In this document: positions 4,353-12,776 of the stretch, one piece after another
Layout of the letters: each line of letters starts with the position of its first letter
How positions within the stretch are numbered: the stretch's first letter is position 1
Source of the DNA: Promethearchaeia archaeon
GTDB taxonomy: Archaea; Asgardarchaeota; Lokiarchaeia; Sigyniarchaeales; SOKP01
Assembly (NCBI GenBank): GCA_046483985.1
Contig: JAWOCD010000119.1
Coordinates: 1-20,389 of the forward strand
Direction of reading: 5' to 3'
Length of the DNA stretch: 20,389 nt
Notes under the pieces: model-generated
What the model saw: the letters and a program-made list of their open reading frames with translations, nothing else
The model's database searches: none
Told to the model about the DNA's origin: nothing
Translations under genes and position numbers: made by a program

Positions 4353-6872
4353 TCAGATTTTTTCTTTAAGATGTGTAATCTTTTTATCCTTAATTTTAAC
4401 TATTTTTTCTTTTTCTAAAGTTTTTAAAATCCCTTTAATCTCCTCTTCTGCAATATCTTCTAACTCAGTATCTAATGACCATATAAATTCATTATTGTAT
4501 TCTAAAGAGTCATCTGATGCATAAATAAGATAATCTTTTAATTGCGAAAAAATCGCTCTAACTTTAGAGTTATCAATATCCCATACTTTCTGTATTACTG
4601 TTCCTTTTTTTTTAACAGAAATCAATTGAAATCCTTTTTCTTCCATCCATTGTGTGTTATTCTCGTAAATTACTCTCAGCGGATAATTATCTCTAAGAGC
4701 TGTTCTATTAGGGATTAATTCGTCAATCTCCTCCTCAAAGGTTTCCTGAGTTTCATCAGCATAATAGTTACGCTTAATATATCCTCTAATTAATTTTAGA
4801 ATCTCATTTGTATTTATCTCTTGTTTTTTCTGTGTAATTATGAATTCTTTGAAAACTTTCTTAAAGATCTCATTTATATCAATGCTGTACTTTTGTACAA
4901 ACTGATTATCTCTAAGAGAAAGGATATACCGCGTACCATTTTTCTTAAAATAGGAAAAATCTTTGTCTTTTATTTTTTTACGTAAGTGTAATGAAGAAAT
5001 TGCGCGTAACACTTTTTCACTTGTGTTCAGAGGTCTGAGACTTACTCTGCTCCCAAAACTGTTTTCTATAATCTTATTGTAAAATTTCTTAAGAATTAGT
5101 TCGTATTTTCTTGGTATTTTTGACTTTTTGTAAATCTCTTTTGCTGCTCTCAGCCAATTTGAATGAATATAGTCTATCTTTTGCTTAGTTCTTTGTCTCT
5201 CATCTTTTATGTTTTCAATAAACTTTGGAAAAGAGAAATCTTTTATTTCCAAATCCTTTGAAATTGTTTTAAGAAGTTTATTCGCTTTGATTTTGTATCT
5301 ATTGTCCACGATCCTGGAGTCAACGAACTTGTCGGGTTTTTCAATTATATAGTACAAGTCCCAGCGCCCTAAGAGTGCTCCTATCGTTTCAGACTTCCAC
5401 CCGATGTTTTCAACAAAAGAAAACTCCGGATTATACGAACCGTCCTTTCTTTTAACACAGTTTAAGATATTTATGAGGCTTCCTTTTGTTGGAGGCTCTA
5501 CATTAATCCCATCAAGTATTATTGATGTATATCCGCGTTCTAAGCAGCGTAATGACTCAAGTATTTTTAATTTCATCTTTTGACTCTCGTCAAGTGCGAG
5601 AGTTCCGTTGGTATATTCTACCAAAAGCCCATAACGTACCGTTGGGACTAATCGATCTTCTACGCGTTGTACAGTTCCAACGAAACCGGCAGTACTCATC
5701 TTTTCGTTTATTTCTGTGAATTGCATGTGTTCGCGCCCTGCCTTTCTCTTTATGCTTTTTACAATTGAACTTTTGTAAGTAGCACCCTCTCCAGCAATTA
5801 TTATATTAAGAGTATCGCGAATATTATCTCTTTCATTCCAACTCCCCCCTGTAATTAAAGCATAACTACTAATTAATTTAATTGGATAGAAAAGATCGAT
5901 TAAATATGTTAGAGGGTGCAAAGAATCAACAAGTTTCTCAATGTATGATTGTTTTTTATCTAATTTCTCTCTTAATGTTTCTATGACTCTTTCGTCAATC
6001 TTTTTTTGCTTGATTGGGCGTATATCAATTACATTGATATATTCTGTAAACCTATTTTTATTTTTATTCTCTAATCTCAGTGCCAAAAAACCAATTACTT
6101 CTATCTCTTCTTTTATATTTATTTTATCTAATTTTTGCGAATAATAATTATATTTTGTATCTGTTTCGCATTTTAACTCATAAAAACTTTGATTCATATC
6201 TTGATTACTCATTAGAAAATAGCCATGAGCATTTCTCTTTGTTTTTTTCTGTATGATCTTAAAATCTTTCTTTGCATCTGCTTTACAACTTTTATTTATG
6301 CAAAATCTCGGATATAAAAAATCCTCTCCAACTTGCGGGATTTCAAATGTTGTCGCGCATAAAAGACATTCAAAATAAGTTACTTTCGCTCTCGTTTCTT
6401 TCCGAAGATTAAGTGAATTGTAACGCCCTCTAAATCTGCATAATTCATATGAATACGGTTCAAGATCTTTTGAAATATCTGAAATTAAGGGTATTAAATC
6501 CTTTACATTTTCATAATCGAAGAGTATGTGTACATCTCTAAAACGTTCTTTCATGATTCGATCTAAATCTTGCTCAATCTTAGCTTGAACTTTTAATTCT
6601 TTACGAATTACATCTTGAAAGGAATGTATTGCTGCCTCAGGATCTTTTCTAATATAATCAAAAAGATCTTGACTATAAGACATAACTTGCTCTAAATTAA
6701 TGGAGATAGAGGGATAAAAGTCCCCTTTTTCAACTATTTTTTTATTTATTTCTTGAGGAATTTTTTGGAAGTACAAAAATTCGCTAATTATCTCTTCTTT
6801 TGGACGGCTTGGCTTGTCAGACTCTTTATTTATCTTAAAACCAGACTCTTTATTTATCTTATTTTCTACCAT
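4353..6872 (-). CDS. mcm: MCM-family replicative helicase (divergent, element-encoded)
   Basis: Zn finger CLLC..CINKSC, Walker A GEGATYKS, Walker B LALDESQKM, Arg finger ALLGRWDL, sensor-2 SLRPL, extended C-terminus. Start placed at MVENK (6872) because of an AGGTGT RBS; the ORF track starts at 6896. Confidence 0.92.
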   Translation of the reverse strand: MVENKINKESGFKINKESDKPSRPKEEIISEFLYFQKIPQEINKKIVEKGDFYPSISINLEQVMSYSQDLFDYIRKDPEAAIHSFQDVIRKELKVQAKIEQDLDRIMKERFRDVHILFDYENVKDLIPLISDISKDLEPYSYELCRFRGRYNSLNLRKETRAKVTYFECLLCATTFEIPQVGEDFLYPRFCINKSCKADAKKDFKIIQKKTKRNAHGYFLMSNQDMNQSFYELKCETDTKYNYYSQKLDKINIKEEIEVIGFLALRLENKNKNRFTEYINVIDIRPIKQKKIDERVIETLREKLDKKQSYIEKLVDSLHPLTYLIDLFYPIKLISSYALITGGSWNERDNIRDTLNIIIAGEGATYKSSIVKSIKRKAGREHMQFTEINEKMSTAGFVGTVQRVEDRLVPTVRYGLLVEYTNGTLALDESQKMKLKILESLRCLERGYTSIILDGINVEPPTKGSLINILNCVKRKDGSYNPEFSFVENIGWKSETIGALLGRWDLYYIIEKPDKFVDSRIVDNRYKIKANKLLKTISKDLEIKDFSFPKFIENIKDERQRTKQKIDYIHSNWLRAAKEIYKKSKIPRKYELILKKFYNKIIENSFGSRVSLRPLNTSEKVLRAISSLHLRKKIKDKDFSYFKKNGTRYILSLRDNQFVQKYSIDINEIFKKVFKEFIITQKKQEINTNEILKLIRGYIKRNYYADETQETFEEEIDELIPNRTALRDNYPLRVIYENNTQWMEEKGFQLISVKKKGTVIQKVWDIDNSKVRAIFSQLKDYLIYASDDSLEYNNEFIWSLDTELEDIAEEEIKGILKTLEKEKIVKIKDKKITHLKEKI
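6818..6861. repeat. 20-bp direct repeat (24-bp period) in the MCM N-terminus
   Basis: CAGACTCTTTATTTATCTTA at 6818 and 6842, encoding KINKES twice. Confidence 0.8.
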
Positions 6873-7098
6873 TTTTACACCTTTTTTGTTTTTCATTTTT
6901 CCAATTTAATCTAACAGGGGCGCAAAAAATCTCCCCCTGTGTGAACATTCTATTTTTTATTTTTCTGGATTCTAAAACTTTATAGAGGCTTTTTCCCATT
7001 GAATCAACCCCGGGAAGAAGTTTCTCAACTTCGAGAATCCCTTTATAATAGCGCCTTTTGATTACTTTTTCTCCGAATAAATTTATCTGTATCTTCAT
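6859..7098 (-). CDS. Hypothetical basic protein
   Basis: 79-aa ORF coupled to the mcm start. Confidence 0.55.
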   Translation of the reverse strand: MKIQINLFGEKVIKRRYYKGILEVEKLLPGVDSMGKSLYKVLESRKIKNRMFTQGEIFCAPVRLNWKNEKQKRCKNGRK

Positions 7099-7153
7099 TT
7101 TTATCTAAAAACTTCTTTTTGTAGTTATCCTTTTTGCTTTTTTATGAGTTAAA

Positions 7154-7300
7154 TTAATAGTCCTCTCTCGTCTCTATATATTCTACACTTGCGCTTTTGC
7201 AACATGGACAAATCTCAGTAACCATCCCCTGTAATTCTGTGTGGATAATATCGCTATCCCGTATCTCTGCTTGACACCCCATACATTTCCAAAATCCCAT
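7154..7300 (-). CDS. Small Zn-ribbon protein (48 aa)
   Basis: Below the track cutoff. GGAGGTGA RBS, then MGFWKCMGCQAEIRDSDIIHTELQGMVTEICPCCKSASVEYIETREDY. Confidence 0.75.
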   Translation of the reverse strand: MGFWKCMGCQAEIRDSDIIHTELQGMVTEICPCCKSASVEYIETREDY

Positions 7301-7326
7301 TATTTGCTCACCTCCTTATTTTTTAT

Positions 7327-8659: not shown

Positions 8660-8883
8660 ATAAAACTCAGCTCCTTTTTTTCCTCTAAATTTCCAAGTAC
8701 AACCTTTTCATCTAAAGCAAGTTTTGGAATCTCCTTCAATGCTTTAATGTATTTCATTTTGCATTCTTTGCTGCAAAAGGTCTTATGGATTGCGCCTCTC
8801 TTGAAATAGGGATTATCGAATGTATGCATAGTTCTTGAATTAATGATTAACTTTCCGCAATAGTCACAGATCAAGCCTCTCAC
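8656..8883 (-). CDS. TRASH-like Zn-binding protein
   Basis: CDYC...FCSKEC motif. Confidence 0.75.
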   Translation of the reverse strand: MRGLICDYCGKLIINSRTMHTFDNPYFKRGAIHKTFCSKECKMKYIKALKEIPKLALDEKVVLGNLEEKKELSFI

Positions 8884-9052
8884 CCCCAGATTTATAAAAA
8901 TCGAGCAATTCTAAAGTTTCAAGTTCGCATTGGAGAAATTCGGAAATTGCAGTTCGAACGCCCTCGCTGCGATTAGGAATTATATTGAGATCGATCAATT
9001 TTTGCAGATTTGCAATGTAAATCTCCGGCAAACTAATCGAAATATTTTTCAC
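8864..9052 (-). CDS. CopG/Arc/MetJ ribbon-helix-helix regulator
   Basis: NISISLPE...LQKLID..IIPNRSEGVRTAISEFL is a classic RHH pattern. Confidence 0.88.
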   Translation of the reverse strand: MKNISISLPEIYIANLQKLIDLNIIPNRSEGVRTAISEFLQCELETLELLDFYKSGGERLDL

Positions 9053-9350
9053 TTTTTTTTCTCCTCACTTTTTCAATGGAAAACCAGCCAGATTCGCAAT
9101 GCGGACATGTAATTGCTGCAACCCATTGATTTACTTGAAATGCTCTTAGTTTTCTTAAACTAAATGTATTACCGCATTCTTGGCATTTCACTCGATACCA
9201 GTGCGTTTGCACGTTTTCCAAGGCATTCCTAATCATTTTGAGATTCGTTTGCACCAAGATCGGATCGTCTTTTGTCATCTCAAGGTTTTCCAATGCATCG
9301 TTTATTGTTTTCTTCAAATTTTCTGAATTAATTTCTTTCATTTTTTTCAC
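9033..9350 (-). CDS. Zn-ribbon protein
   Basis: CQEC...CPHC after an N-terminal helical hairpin. Confidence 0.75.
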   Translation of the reverse strand: MKKMKEINSENLKKTINDALENLEMTKDDPILVQTNLKMIRNALENVQTHWYRVKCQECGNTFSLRKLRAFQVNQWVAAITCPHCESGWFSIEKVRRKKSEKYFD

Positions 9351-9574
9351 TTTTTTAATTTTTGATAATATTTTTGATTAGAAAGGCATATTTGCCTATA
9401 GCCTCGAAATGAGGCTAATTTTGACCGAGAAAGGGAAATAACAGGGTGAGAGATACCCAAATGGTACAGGGTGAGGAGGGCAAAATCAATCGCGCAAAGC
9501 GCAATAACCAAAAGACAAAAATCCAGTGGGTTATCTCTCTTTTTAAGAAAGAGTTTACCTTTCTCGTATATCAT
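9347..9574 (-). CDS. Hypothetical protein with one hydrophobic segment
   Basis: 75-aa ORF filling the gap between flanking genes. Confidence 0.45.
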   Translation of the reverse strand: MIYEKGKLFLKKRDNPLDFCLLVIALCAIDFALLTLYHLGISHPVISLSRSKLASFRGYRQICLSNQKYYQKLKK

Positions 9575-9577
9575 TTT

Positions 9578-10813
9578 CTAATCTAATACCTCTGTGAGTT
9601 TTTTTAATCTATTTATAACTACATTAATGCTTTTGCTTTCTGGATTTTCCTTAACTCGTTTAAGACCAGAAAGCATAAAGTCTAATTCTATGCCTAAATC
9701 CAAATCAAGATTTTGATTTATCGCTTCAAGCGCCTCAGAAATCGAGATTTTAGACTCAGAAAAATTCAAGTCAAGATTTGAATTTATTCCATTTAAAAGT
9801 GAGTTTTTTAATTCTTTAATTTGCCGATTAATGCAAAGTTTTGCTTTTAGTTCCTTGACTTGTTTCTTTTTCGCTTTAAGTTCCTTGTCATAAGTCTCAA
9901 AAGGATTGTCTCCTAACCATTTTTGAATCTCTTTTTCGCAATGATTAATAGCAATATCTGGTTTTGGTAAAATTGCATTAGCTTCACATTTGCGCCTCCC
10001 ATACTTTTCGATGTAATCGCTAACATAGTCAAGAGAATCATCAGCGCGGCGTCCGGAGCCAGTAGTGAGATTATCTATCCACATAAGATTATTTTGATTT
10101 ATAAAATCAAACGTGAGACCAAATCTATCGACAACTAAATTTTTGGGATCCCACCCTGTGGCCTTCCGGAGATCGCGCAAATTTTTTTTCAATTTATCGG
10201 CAATTAAGAGCCCGGCGGGATCAAAATCTGCATAGTACATTAGGATCGGTTTTAATCCCAATTCCTCTGCCTTCTTAAAGCGCTCAGCTAATTGCGCGCG
10301 TGAGAGTATGCTTGACCACCCGCGCGCGTTCGCGATGGGAATATGATATTTACTACATATTGATTTGAATAAATTGCGGACATCTACTTTCTCTACGAGC
10401 ATCTGTATATAGACATCTTGAGTTTCCCAGAATCCAGTTCGTACGTCGTTTTCGCATTCTAAGACCCAATCGAGATTACGCCTAATGATCACCTTGGGAT
10501 CTGATTTTCCCTCTGCTAAAGGCTCTACATTAATGTAATCCCGCGCCTCATCCAGTTCCACGAAATCAACCGGTAAATAACCGCGCTTTCGACAGCGATT
10601 GATAATCTTTTGCGCATAGTCAAATTGATCTTTACTGATTAACCCCATACCCTCTAAAAGATAACACCAACCTCTGCTACTTACTTTATCGCTCATTTGC
10701 GAATCAAGTTCCATGAGTGCATCAGCGAAGTTTTGTAATTGCTGCTCATATTTTTTCTTGAATTCCTTGCTTTTCCGACCTCTGCGATTCTCTGGGAGTA
10801 CAATATCAACCAT
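9578..10813 (-). CDS. TopoVI-A/Spo11-like protein (Mini-A type: winged helix with Tyr plus TOPRIM)
   Basis: SSRGWCYLL (R..Y of the 5Y-CAP domain), FWETQ..IQMLVEK, RGWSS, LMYYADFDPAG (DxD), RFGLT, EANA. Start placed at MVDIV (10813) after GGAGATGA. Confidence 0.82.
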   Translation of the reverse strand: MVDIVLPENRRGRKSKEFKKKYEQQLQNFADALMELDSQMSDKVSSRGWCYLLEGMGLISKDQFDYAQKIINRCRKRGYLPVDFVELDEARDYINVEPLAEGKSDPKVIIRRNLDWVLECENDVRTGFWETQDVYIQMLVEKVDVRNLFKSICSKYHIPIANARGWSSILSRAQLAERFKKAEELGLKPILMYYADFDPAGLLIADKLKKNLRDLRKATGWDPKNLVVDRFGLTFDFINQNNLMWIDNLTTGSGRRADDSLDYVSDYIEKYGRRKCEANAILPKPDIAINHCEKEIQKWLGDNPFETYDKELKAKKKQVKELKAKLCINRQIKELKNSLLNGINSNLDLNFSESKISISEALEAINQNLDLDLGIELDFMLSGLKRVKENPESKSINVVINRLKKLTEVLD

Positions 10814-10970
10814 TTTTAGAATCATCTCCAATTTTTAGAAACCAGATTAATACTTCTCTGACAGCATCAGAATTGTATTCAATATTTCTAAATTTGAATT
10901 TCTTTTGAGCTGCCTTCTTTACCCTTTCAGCAAGAGTTTTCTCGAGTTTAATATTTGTTTTTTCAAACAT
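10806..10970 (-). CDS. Ribbon-helix-helix protein (54 aa)
   Basis: Below the cutoff: MFEKTNIKLEKTLAERVKKAAQKKFKFRNIEYNSDAVREVLIWFLKIGDDSKNG; overlaps the Mini-A start. Confidence 0.75.
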   Translation of the reverse strand: MFEKTNIKLEKTLAERVKKAAQKKFKFRNIEYNSDAVREVLIWFLKIGDDSKNG

Positions 10971-11476: not shown

Positions 11477-11683
11477 TTATTCGGACACCTCAATTGATTC
11501 TGACTGCATAGATTCCTCTAATAGATTTGCTAAAGGCATTTTTGCAGCTTGTTTTAGAATAAATCTAAGAGTCTCTGAATTGTTCTTTAAACCCAGAGCT
11601 TTTTTAATCTTTTTAAAATTCTGATATGCTATTCCAGATTTATTGAGGGCGACTCTTAGATCTATTGTTTTTAGATTTGACAT
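11477..11683 (-). CDS. RHH-like transcription regulator (left gene of the divergent pair)
   Basis: IDLRVAL...FKKIKKALGLKNNSETLRFILKQ. Confidence 0.8.
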   Translation of the reverse strand: MSNLKTIDLRVALNKSGIAYQNFKKIKKALGLKNNSETLRFILKQAAKMPLANLLEESMQSESIEVSE

Positions 11684-11751
11684 TATTTTATAGTCTCTTA
11701 TAATTTTTTTTAGTTTAATTTATCCAATTTTAGACATTATTATTATGGAAA

Positions 11752-11879
11752 AGTTCCTTTATAAAGTTATGGATAAAAATGGACAGAAAAAACCAAAAGG
11801 AACTAAACAAGCCAAAAACTTATGTAAGAGAAGAAGAATAGTTCCTTTATAAAGTTATGGATAAAAATGGACAGAAAAA
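11752..11879. repeat. Two exact 40-bp direct repeats, each with a palindromic TATA box
   Basis: AGTTCCTTTATAAAGTTATGGATAAAAATGGACAGAAAAA at 11752-11791 and 11840-11879; 48-bp spacer. Confidence 0.95.
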
Positions 11880-11888
11880 GATGAAAAA

Positions 11889-12050
11889 ATGGTTGTCCGT
11901 CTAATACTAAAAAAGAATCGGGATCAACCAATTTATGAGTTTTTTGAAAAGATTAAAACTCATTTAGGGTTGAAAGTAAATACAGAAGTTGCCCGATATT
12001 GTATTAAACGCACTTATGAGATGCTAAGAGAAAAAGGAAAGATTAAATAA
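11889..12050 (+). CDS. RHH-like transcription regulator (right gene of the divergent pair, 53 aa)
   Basis: Below the cutoff: MVVRLILKKNRDQPIYEFFEKIKTHLGLKVNTEVARYCIKRTYEMLREKGKIK, a clear paralogue of 11477..11683; TATA box at 11846-11853. Confidence 0.8.
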   Translation: MVVRLILKKNRDQPIYEFFEKIKTHLGLKVNTEVARYCIKRTYEMLREKGKIK

Positions 12051-12243
12051 GCGCATCTTGAAAACTGCAATTTTTTAGTGTTTCCCCTTCTTCTTTTAGA
12101 AAGTCCTCAATTTCTTTATCTATTTTCTTCCCTTTTAGAATTGCTCTTGCCTTAAAAAAATAATAACATTGTTCAGGTAGGGAAATTTCAATTCTCTTTT
12201 TATTATTAGTTTGAGACATTTTTTTGTTTTTTAACCTCCTCAT
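12043..12243 (-). CDS. Arc-like RHH protein
   Basis: RIEISLPEQCYYFFKARAILKGKKIDKEIEDFLKE; the true start may be MSQT. Confidence 0.7.
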   Translation of the reverse strand: MRRLKNKKMSQTNNKKRIEISLPEQCYYFFKARAILKGKKIDKEIEDFLKEEGETLKNCSFQDALI

Positions 12244-12446
12244 TTGTTATTCAGATAGATATTTTATTTTTTGATTTTTGAATCATATTTATCTAATAAG
12301 AAAAATGCTTTATAATATTTGACTAATATACTAATCCGGCACACACTTATCTTTAAGTAACAGAGGGAGGGAGGGGTCATTAAAAGTAAAAGTGAATTGT
12401 GTCGGAAAAAATAAAGATAAAAAAGAAAATGAAATTGGAAAATTAG

Positions 12447-12776
12447 TTATTCCAGCCCTTGGAGAAAATCTTTTAATTTTTGGGGATCGCGGTCGGCCAG
12501 CAAGGAATCAATCCTTTTTTTATGTGTTTCCCAGGTCATCTTATGAATTGGGGTCCCTAATGACTTCGAGCGTTTGCTCGAACGTTTTAGGTTAGGATCA
12601 TAGTAGTTTTCGATTTCATAAAAATAGATTTTATTCCCTGAAGGAATCGCTTCTAACTTTTTTCGTTGTATCCGGGCGGCCAAGTCTCGAATCTCCCGCA
12701 GCGCCTCCTTGGGGTCTTTAATCTTAGAGATCCGGATAACCTCTTGTTTTAATTTCTTGAACTGCACTTTAATCAC
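12447..12776 (-). CDS. Basic putative DNA-binding protein (beta-hairpin motif)
   Basis: GNKIYFYEIENYYDPNLKRSSKRSKSLG resembles the G..Y.Y.....YD.....LG motif of archaeal virus proteins and IS1634-type transposase N-termini. Confidence 0.65.
   Translation of the reverse strand: MIKVQFKKLKQEVIRISKIKDPKEALREIRDLAARIQRKKLEAIPSGNKIYFYEIENYYDPNLKRSSKRSKSLGTPIHKMTWETHKKRIDSLLADRDPQKLKDFLQGLE

Follow-up and report, generated by a model that had tools for sequence, protein, structure and literature searches.

Divergent paralogous ribbon-helix-helix genes and phased hexamer arrays: a candidate transcription-control module of Asgard archaeal mobile elements

Small repressors of the ribbon-helix-helix (RHH) class, such as Arc, CopG, AmrZ and Reg576, bind as dimers to repeats that lie about one helical turn apart, on which they assemble cooperatively (PMC6294495). 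In the immI region of phage P22 two protein repressors control ant (PMC2629481), and in the archaeal virus SSV1 the 55-aa RHH protein F55 recognises 11-nt sites, present in multiple copies in its own and in the early promoters, and keeps the virus in its carrier state (PMC9608457). The locus considered here lies on contig JAWOCD010000119.1 of a Promethearchaeia archaeon of the Lokiarchaeia, the whole of which (20,389 bp; contig C56 of a 4.06-Mb genome with 35% GC) was analysed and is referred to as the window. Two paralogous genes in the window, A and B, encode small proteins that model as RHH and diverge from an intergenic region with phased hexamer arrays, and both the pair and the arrays are conserved in related elements. 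The resulting module probably exerts on/off control of the element's replication genes, and we think it on balance probable that it consists of two back-to-back archaeal promoters, each blocked by an RHH protein sitting between TATA box and start.

The genes on which this reading depends are the following.

11889-12050, plus strand: A (P0001), the type A RHH gene, 53 aa, given by its open reading frame (ORF) and translation; apparently transcribed alone
11477-11683, minus strand: B (P0002), the type B RHH gene, 68 aa, given by its ORF and translation; first gene of the leftward block
9578-10831, minus strand: Topo mini-A homologue (phrog_6247, 1.7e-60), reached from B without large gaps
4353-6896, minus strand: MCM helicase (PF00493, 3.3e-17), further along the block that B leads

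The minus-strand block headed by B continues, without large gaps, for about nine further genes, the Topo mini-A homologue and the more distant MCM included. A tyrosine integrase is encoded on the plus strand of the window and A is, like it, a lone plus-strand gene, while B heads the replication genes. This layout, with a 53-aa plus-strand ORF, a divergent minus-strand gene leading the Mini-A/MCM block and an integrase on the plus strand, was described in an initial annotation of the contig and was recovered as described.

The same annotation had taken A and B for paralogues of the RHH class. Paralogy is evident from BLASTP (E 5e-9, with 15/36 residues identical across the helix region), and the class assignment is supported by structure prediction. 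The AlphaFold2 model of A (pLDDT 96.9) has an extended N-terminus and helices at residues 15-26 and 31-48, and that of B (pLDDT 85.3) an extended N-terminus with helices at 18-30 and 35-47 and a third helix at 51-60. When A was compared with 48,161 PDB chains independently of Foldseek, NikR was the best match (Z 5.4, 45 residues aligned, rmsd 2.0), other top matches being MazE6, PutA, TraM, AmrZ, SvtR of SIRV1, ORF56 of pRN1 and Arc; Foldseek agreed, with CopG-DNA complexes near the top. B, searched against the same chains, returned NikR (Z 4.7), ArtA, AmrZ and Arc, nearly all of the top rows being RHH proteins, as well as Mnt (1mnt_B) with Z 4.1 over 57 residues, the third helix included. On these models A and B share the RHH fold of a strand and two helices, which is accepted because the list of top structural matches is so uniform and not because of the scores themselves.

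A and B had no match in Pfam, NCBIfam or PHROGs, a PDB sequence-profile search with them gave nothing significant and returned neither Arc nor Mnt, and neither protein matched the Arc and Mnt families of Pfam at E up to 0.1. One of 80 aligned relatives matches PF01402 (RHH_1, 1e-4), and hhalign against the CdrS-like RHH protein that the element itself encodes at 8864-9052 found the right register with a probability of just 2.4%. A profile search of 1.84 billion representatives yielded 186 clusters at E up to 0.001, all of small proteins, and the family may be regarded as an RHH subfamily outside the curated libraries, represented by these clusters. The nearest relative of A is 86% identical, among 10 proteins at E up to 0.001 (query counted).

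Both genes appear to be working ones, since the ratio of non-synonymous to synonymous substitution (dN/dS) is low in close pairs (0.14-0.31 for A, 0.18-0.27 for B). An alternating residue pattern, I-R-L-N/I-L in A and I-E/D-L-R-L in B, is compatible with a strand of the antiparallel two-stranded sheet that RHH dimers insert into the major groove, and the residues predicted to face outward are R, I/N and K/S in A and D/E, R and x in B. As these DNA-facing residues differ, identical specificity of the two proteins is unlikely. A, with 53 aa, has no further domain.

The region between the two genes contains the following features.

11721-11736, minus strand: B-side hexamer pair, TGTCTA-AAAT-TGGATA toward B; candidate operator of the B promoter
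11737-11766, no strand: central core-promoter region, defined by its sequence, with the promoter assignment predicted from the archaeal TATA spacing rule
11737-46, minus-strand reading: TTATTATTAT, possible TATA box of B
11747-57: GGAAAAGTTCC, near-palindrome between two AT-rich boxes
11758-66: TTTATAAAG, TATA box assigned to the distal A promoter
11748-11791, plus strand: copy 1 of a 44-nt unit, with part of the central palindrome, TATA, TTA and TGGATA(11770)-AAAA-TGGACA(11780); putative distal A promoter and operator
11796-11804, plus strand: AAAGGAACT, inverted copy of AGTTCCTTT (inverted repeats I11, I16)
11836-11879, plus strand: copy 2 of the 44-nt unit, with TATA at 11846-54, TGGATA at 11858 and TGGACA at 11868; putative proximal A promoter and operator

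The initial annotation had counted three hexamer pairs here, and hexamers are found at each of the positions it gave: TATCCA at 11721, TAGACA at 11731, TGGATA at 11770 and 11858, and TGGACA at 11780 and 11868. The motif TGGAYA-N4-TGGAYA, with at most one mismatch, occurs three times in the window against 0.21 expected, and none of 100 shuffles reached three. A looser form of the dimer has nine sites in the 4.06-Mb genome against 5.7 expected, with the AAAA spacer only in the two of this contig; promoters of this genome do not in general carry the phased hexamer dimer. The copy at pair 1 is imperfect and oppositely oriented, reading TGTCTAAAATTGGATA toward the minus-strand gene. Pairs 2 and 3 are not independent of one another, because both lie inside one 44-nt direct repeat, whose copies are 43/44 identical and 88 nt apart. 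Each copy has a palindromic TATA-like CTTTATAAAG, then TTA and then TGGATAAAAATGGACA, and copy 2 ends 9 nt ahead of the start codon of A; AGTTCCTTT starts both units, and its inverted copy lies 44 nt away from each. Judged from this repeat structure, pairs 2 and 3 are a putative promoter-operator unit in duplicate and not separate operators.

The centre of the region, TTATTATTAT - GGAAAAGTTCC - TTTATAAAG, is compatible with two back-to-back core promoters. In archaeal promoters the centre of the TATA box lies about 26 nt ahead of the start site, and by this rule both arrays fall between a TATA box and a predicted start. TTATAA at 11698-11703 was considered as the TATA box of B and rejected, as the start site would then fall within the ORF. 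Elsewhere in the genome 36 nt match the intergenic region, at C32:85369-85402; this match falls within a membrane-protein gene and was set aside as chance. Overlapping the start codon of B, at 11677-11704 on the plus strand, is a perfect bacterial sigma-70 consensus (TTGACA, 16 nt, TATAAT; 12/12), of which the TTGACATTATT portion recurs as TAGACATTATT at 11731-11741; such a consensus is odd for an archaeal element and may be chance in AT-rich DNA.

Relatives were collected from same-family genome searches, one genome-collection scan and one metagenome scan, labelled as type A (...NTEVAR.CIKKAYE) or type B (...NSEVLRFI.KQ) by sequence motif, and compared with B on the left and A on the right. 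The divergent pair, with B leftward and A rightward, occurs in 11 loci, every one of which holds one A and one B: this contig, G012:C37, G016:C24, G073:C174, G075:C11, G077:C24, G086:C54, JANBVM010000006 and three short metagenome contigs. There are orthologues of B in 10 loci other than this one, and in a tree a branch supported at 100/100 separates the A from the B type. Matches below 1e-14 came only from the Asgard family of the window (10/135 genomes), and weaker relatives of A and B occur in three other families of the phylum. No relative was found among IMG/VR viral contigs, and tblastn of A and B against 50,697 GenBank phage/virus records gave no match, an ATPase of the window being likewise unmatched in phage/virus records. 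One of the loci, L056 (JANBVM010000006.1, 37 kb), is binned as 'Patescibacteria group bacterium' and is probably a mis-binned Asgard mobile element; it carries A, B and a third gene, C, as a full module, together with CdrS-like RHH genes such as characterise the Asgard elements.

Every A promoter examined beside B has a TATA-like box followed, after 3-5 nt, by two to four hexamers in exact 10-bp phase toward A. This A-side array reads TGGATA, TGGACA in the window; TGGGTA, TGGATA, AGGACA in G012; TGGATA, TGGATA, AGAATA, AGGATA in L056; GTGATA, AGGATA, TGGAGT in four loci of the genus g11; and, in more diverged form, GTGTAA, GTGAAA, AGACAA in G016. The B-side array is shorter and more variable, with two hexamers pointing toward B: the g11 loci have TGACA or TAACA, AAAT and TGGAYA, at the same position as in the window and in invariant alignment blocks, and in L056 GAATAA stands twice. 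Between the inner edges of the two arrays lie 33 nt in the window, G073, G075, G077 and G086, as against 37 nt in the L056 and G012 types. When 170 kb of related loci were searched loosely for phased pairs of TGGATAAAAA-like units, 13 matches were obtained against 3.7 in shuffles, and 9/13 stand directly upstream of an A gene in the same orientation. Within two groups the intergenic regions are 84-86% identical at a synonymous divergence (dS) of 0.4-1.0 in the flanking genes, and the hexamers lie in invariant blocks. The g11 and L056 B genes have GAGGT or GGGAG 5-8 nt ahead of the ATG, compatible with transcription from the central promoter into a leadered mRNA.

The plus-strand ORF, the divergent pair and the hexamers, for each of which the initial annotation had pointed to conservation as a check, are thus kept in relatives. 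Its three shared operators are not: they are peculiar to this contig through duplication, relatives having one array per side with a single A unit, and the doubled unit is the sole unusual feature of the window. Covariation of A and B strand residues with hexamer bases across elements showed no clean pattern. In G030 (L047, G030:C69), A has a four-hexamer array (TGGATA, TGGATA, TGGACA, TGAATA) and stands opposite a winged-helix protein instead of B, so that the partner regulator appears to have been swapped for an unrelated one. This partner of A, encoded at 10337-10861 on the plus strand of L047, has 175 aa and weak matches of the TrmB/MarR type.

From the genes, their paralogy and fold class, the purifying selection on them and the conserved layout of pair and arrays, we infer a pair of promoters with their start sites, an assignment of each protein to an array, and repression itself. 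The module would serve transcription control in Asgard archaeal mobile elements through two divergent paralogous RHH repressors, with TGGAYA-related hexamers in 10-bp phase placed between each TATA box and its predicted start. An RHH dimer of dimers on one face of the DNA would exclude TFB and RNA polymerase from the promoter. The conserved A-side array is most likely bound by A, which would there be self-limiting, because the array persists in G030 without an adjacent B, and because good conservation is shared by A and the A-side array, in contrast to B and the B-side array, which vary alike. A would also reach the TGGATA of the B-side array and hold down the operon that B leads (here the Mini-A and MCM replication genes); such cross-talk is plausible given that, in both the window and the g11 loci, the B-side array includes one hexamer of A type. 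B, as the first gene of the operon, would feed back on its own promoter and perhaps on that of A. A would thus be a self-limiting maintenance repressor and B a feedback repressor of its own operon, and on this contig the duplicated promoter-operator unit would give two tandem A promoters. The favoured description is of A and B as a mutually aware repressor pair on two back-to-back promoters.

A third gene and its relatives stand next to A:

12043-12243, minus strand: gene C, 66 aa, convergent with A and overlapping the 3' end of A by 8 nt
L045 4005-4205, L056 8166-8375 and L048 8919-9488: relatives of C

By tblastn and clustering, C is convergent with and adjacent to A in four element types, those of the window, G012, L056 and G086. 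In G086 it stands beside a second A copy, where B is absent, and its domain is fused to a PAS domain (PF08447, 1.6e-11), as the C-terminal part of a 190-aa protein. C is possibly a third member of the module and could be its signal input; the idea that it might itself be an RHH protein was unsupported in profile searches.

The genomic setting of the module varies between relatives. G016 shares the general layout of the window, its MCM belonging to the block led by B and its ATPase lying on the far side. In genomes of the genus g11 the pair is found within long chromosomal contigs, where its neighbours (L050 211-6597 and the flanks in L049 and L048) include a reverse transcriptase (PF00078), an AbiEii-like AAA ATPase with Schlafen AlbA_2, and PAS proteins; this presence amid defence-type genes on chromosomes indicates that the module is portable and not tied to viruses. 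These loci also hold repeated convergent pairs of a PAS protein and a small gene. Downstream of B, four relatives have a conserved 343-459-aa protein of unassigned family (215 aa and in another position in G012), and the B-led block of G012 encodes a Bro-N domain protein that scores just under the Pfam gathering threshold.

Several observations weigh against the two-promoter account. The structural Z scores are low in absolute terms, as the domain is small (about 50 residues), the AlphaFold2 models are monomers in which the ribbon is not formed, and neither A nor B is tied to RHH families by a sequence profile. The very high AT content of the region makes the TATA assignments soft, that of B above all. 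No further array within one mismatch was found at a promoter-like position in the 20.4-kb window, and none in 2560-2940 or 12230-12460, so that A has no evident target beyond this region; nor does A have a sensor or cleavage domain that would explain induction. There is a second A in G086 and a lone A in G096 without a clear array, and the g11 module, among defence-type genes and without MCM, means that a role in a viral life cycle is not general.

Considering what else the pair might be, the initial annotation had proposed a lambda-like arrangement, in which A (lysogenic, with the integrase) and B (lytic) compete with opposite preference for three shared operators and give a bistable choice between lysis and lysogeny. 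A shared control region does lie between divergent regulators, hexamers of the TGGATA type are present on the A and the B side in the window and in four relatives, and the contig has an integrase and virus-like genes (the Zot-type ATPase at lead level); with A a lone plus-strand gene like the integrase and B heading the Mini-A/MCM block, the layout does fit a regulatory switch. However, the three sites exist only in this contig, by way of duplication, and indirect evidence speaks against CI/Cro-like competition for the same sites: the predicted DNA-reading strand residues differ between A and B, and B-side hexamers vary where the A-side ones are conserved, the two sides differing in the L056 and G012 types. 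The folds are RHH and not helix-turn-helix (HTH), A has no damage-sensing domain, an integrated state is not evident from a contig that is itself the whole window and whose ends do not overlap, and the module also occurs in islands that hold defence-type genes and no MCM, so that a lysis/lysogeny function cannot be general to it. We regard this arrangement as quite unlikely. A reading in which A and B are independent autoregulators without cross-talk, B as a CopG-like copy-number repressor and A regulating itself, with or on C, agrees with the common autoregulation of RHH first genes in replication operons (CopG and ORF56 of pRN1, both among the structural matches), with a conservation of each array that tracks the neighbouring gene, and with the adjacency of A and C that is kept even without B at the second A of G086. 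It is nonetheless rather unlikely, as the pair is kept in 11 loci with array spacing fixed at 33-37 nt, one hexamer of A type stands on the B side in the window and four relatives, and a purely self-directed regulator would be purposeless.

The repeats could alternatively be phased A-tracts, forming bent DNA or the iterons of a replication origin, with the small proteins as origin-binding or partition adaptors. The GGATAAAAA units do place A-tracts in helical phase, which bends DNA, the region stands at the head of the Mini-A/MCM block, and B is followed in four relatives by the conserved 343-459-aa protein; but the arrays are fixed 3-5 nt past TATA-like boxes and oriented toward each gene, they are kept in loci without MCM or Mini-A, and two to four short repeats are few for iterons, so that this explanation is very doubtful. 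That A or B is the antitoxin of a toxin-antitoxin pair seems the most improbable reading: although many of the top structural matches are RHH antitoxins (MazE, ParD, TacA, VapB) and a distant member of the family in G018 lies upstream of a Doc/Fic-like ORF (by eye), no conserved co-directional partner of toxin size follows A or B across the loci, A is monocistronic, and the 112-aa gene after B is not conserved. The G018 arrangement (L014, G018:C49; 998-1674, minus strand), a 98-aa protein encoded just upstream of a 129-aa ORF with a Doc/Fic-like GNKR motif, suggests that some relatives serve as antitoxins. The pair of back-to-back repressible promoters may also be carried further than we have done above, to a bistable switch that commits Asgard viruses and islands either to quiescence (carrier or integrated) or to replication, with A as maintenance repressor, B as early-operon repressor and C as signal input; we put this forward tentatively, as a possibility that is more probably wrong than right.

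The remainder of the window has some bearing on the kind of element involved. A second minus-strand block (20388 to 12043) encodes the ATPase, for which a search of the ESM Atlas placed Zot-type assembly ATPases among the nearest clusters, a finding at lead level only; small two-helix membrane proteins at 2082-2571 and a large surface protein are also present. Wyrdviruses have been described for Asgard archaea (10.1101/2021.07.29.453957). The element recalls them in its ATPase, small two-helix membrane proteins and large surface protein, although membership could not be shown. Circularity of the contig was rejected, as the termini do not overlap and the halves of the end gene cannot be joined in frame. 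No Rfam family matched in a scan of the window, and no antirepressor gene was recognised in it.

A further small RHH gene lies on the minus strand at 8864-9052, with weak matches to CdrS, the cell-cycle regulator aCcr1 and NikR (NCBIfam E 7e-5, 1.4e-3 and 7.4e-4, all far under the curated cut-offs), and CdrS-like RHH genes are kept in G012, G016 and L056, where the block led by B often has two of them. At 7151-7326, 176 nt that span a 48-aa zinc-ribbon ORF recur with 100% identity at the end of a different contig of this genome (C34:14-189); the likely cause is a further copy or a variant of the element, or else a break in the assembly. About 70 nt at 9458-9526, within a 75-aa ORF (9347-9574), have copies of 78-89% identity in C45, C66, C86, C95 and C98, with an exact 28-nt match in C45; no tRNA was found at 9458-9526, and the stretch may belong to a short repeat family or be an attachment-type sequence.

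In the literature searched, work on Asgard viruses and mobile elements is mostly sequence-based, with one virus-host culture reported, and the Asgard virus papers examined for regulation describe no regulatory circuit for these elements and no module of this kind. The module is a small conserved circuit of two proteins of about 6-8 kDa and a stretch of some 200 bp in which candidate TATA boxes and operators are defined, and it could be tested in vitro without culture of the host. It also allows promoter layouts to be compared within Lokiarchaeia, and its two promoters are a candidate repressible pair for future genetic tools. If the bistable switch is true, Asgard mobile elements would have their first defined genetic switch, and a ready set of repressor, operator and promoter would be at hand for Asgard genetic tools; if the switch reading is wrong, an ordinary pair of autoregulators remains.

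The module is closer to known switches of phages and archaeal viruses than to anything new. Its closest parallels are P22 Arc/Mnt, the nearest in layout, and SSV1 F55, the nearest among archaeal cases; both are nearer than lambda CI/Cro. P22 immI likewise has two paralogous small RHH repressors (Arc 53 aa, Mnt 82 aa). The arc and mnt genes are said to have been described by Sauer et al. 1983 and Vershon et al. 1985 as diverging from closely apposed promoters, arc reportedly being the first gene of the ant operon that it limits, while mnt stands alone and maintains repression. A and B are likewise divergent RHH paralogues, one leading an operon and one alone, behind predicted promoters. Unlike the P22 pair, they have no detectable sequence relation to Arc or Mnt, the likeness being one of fold and layout; the promoters are of sigma-70 type in P22 and would be of archaeal TATA type here, the Arc/Mnt operators are palindromic whereas direct hexamer repeats in 10-bp phase are found here, P22 has an antirepressor as cargo, with an antisense RNA, and no antirepressor gene was identified in this window, and the roles by size are swapped, the smaller protein being the lone gene here.

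Lambda CI/Cro with OR1-OR3 shares with the locus the divergent regulators around a control region that heads early genes. CI and Cro are, however, HTH proteins and not sequence paralogues, they share three palindromic operators, and CI has a cleavable C-terminal domain; A and B both model as RHH, and neither an HTH nor a self-cleaving (S24) domain was found in them. CopG of pMV158 and ORF56 of pRN1 are small RHH proteins encoded, as B is, by the first gene of a replication operon, and they repress their own promoter, but from a single pseudo-palindromic operator and with no divergent paralogue. F55 differs in being a singleton without a paralogous partner that acts at four promoters, in contrast to arrays at one locus here, and SSV1 has a host among the Sulfolobales and not the Asgard archaea. 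F55 is nevertheless, like A, an RHH protein of about 55 aa, from an integrating archaeal virus, and the element in the window looks related to the spindle viruses in its integrase, its small two-helix membrane proteins and the lead to a Zot-like ATPase.

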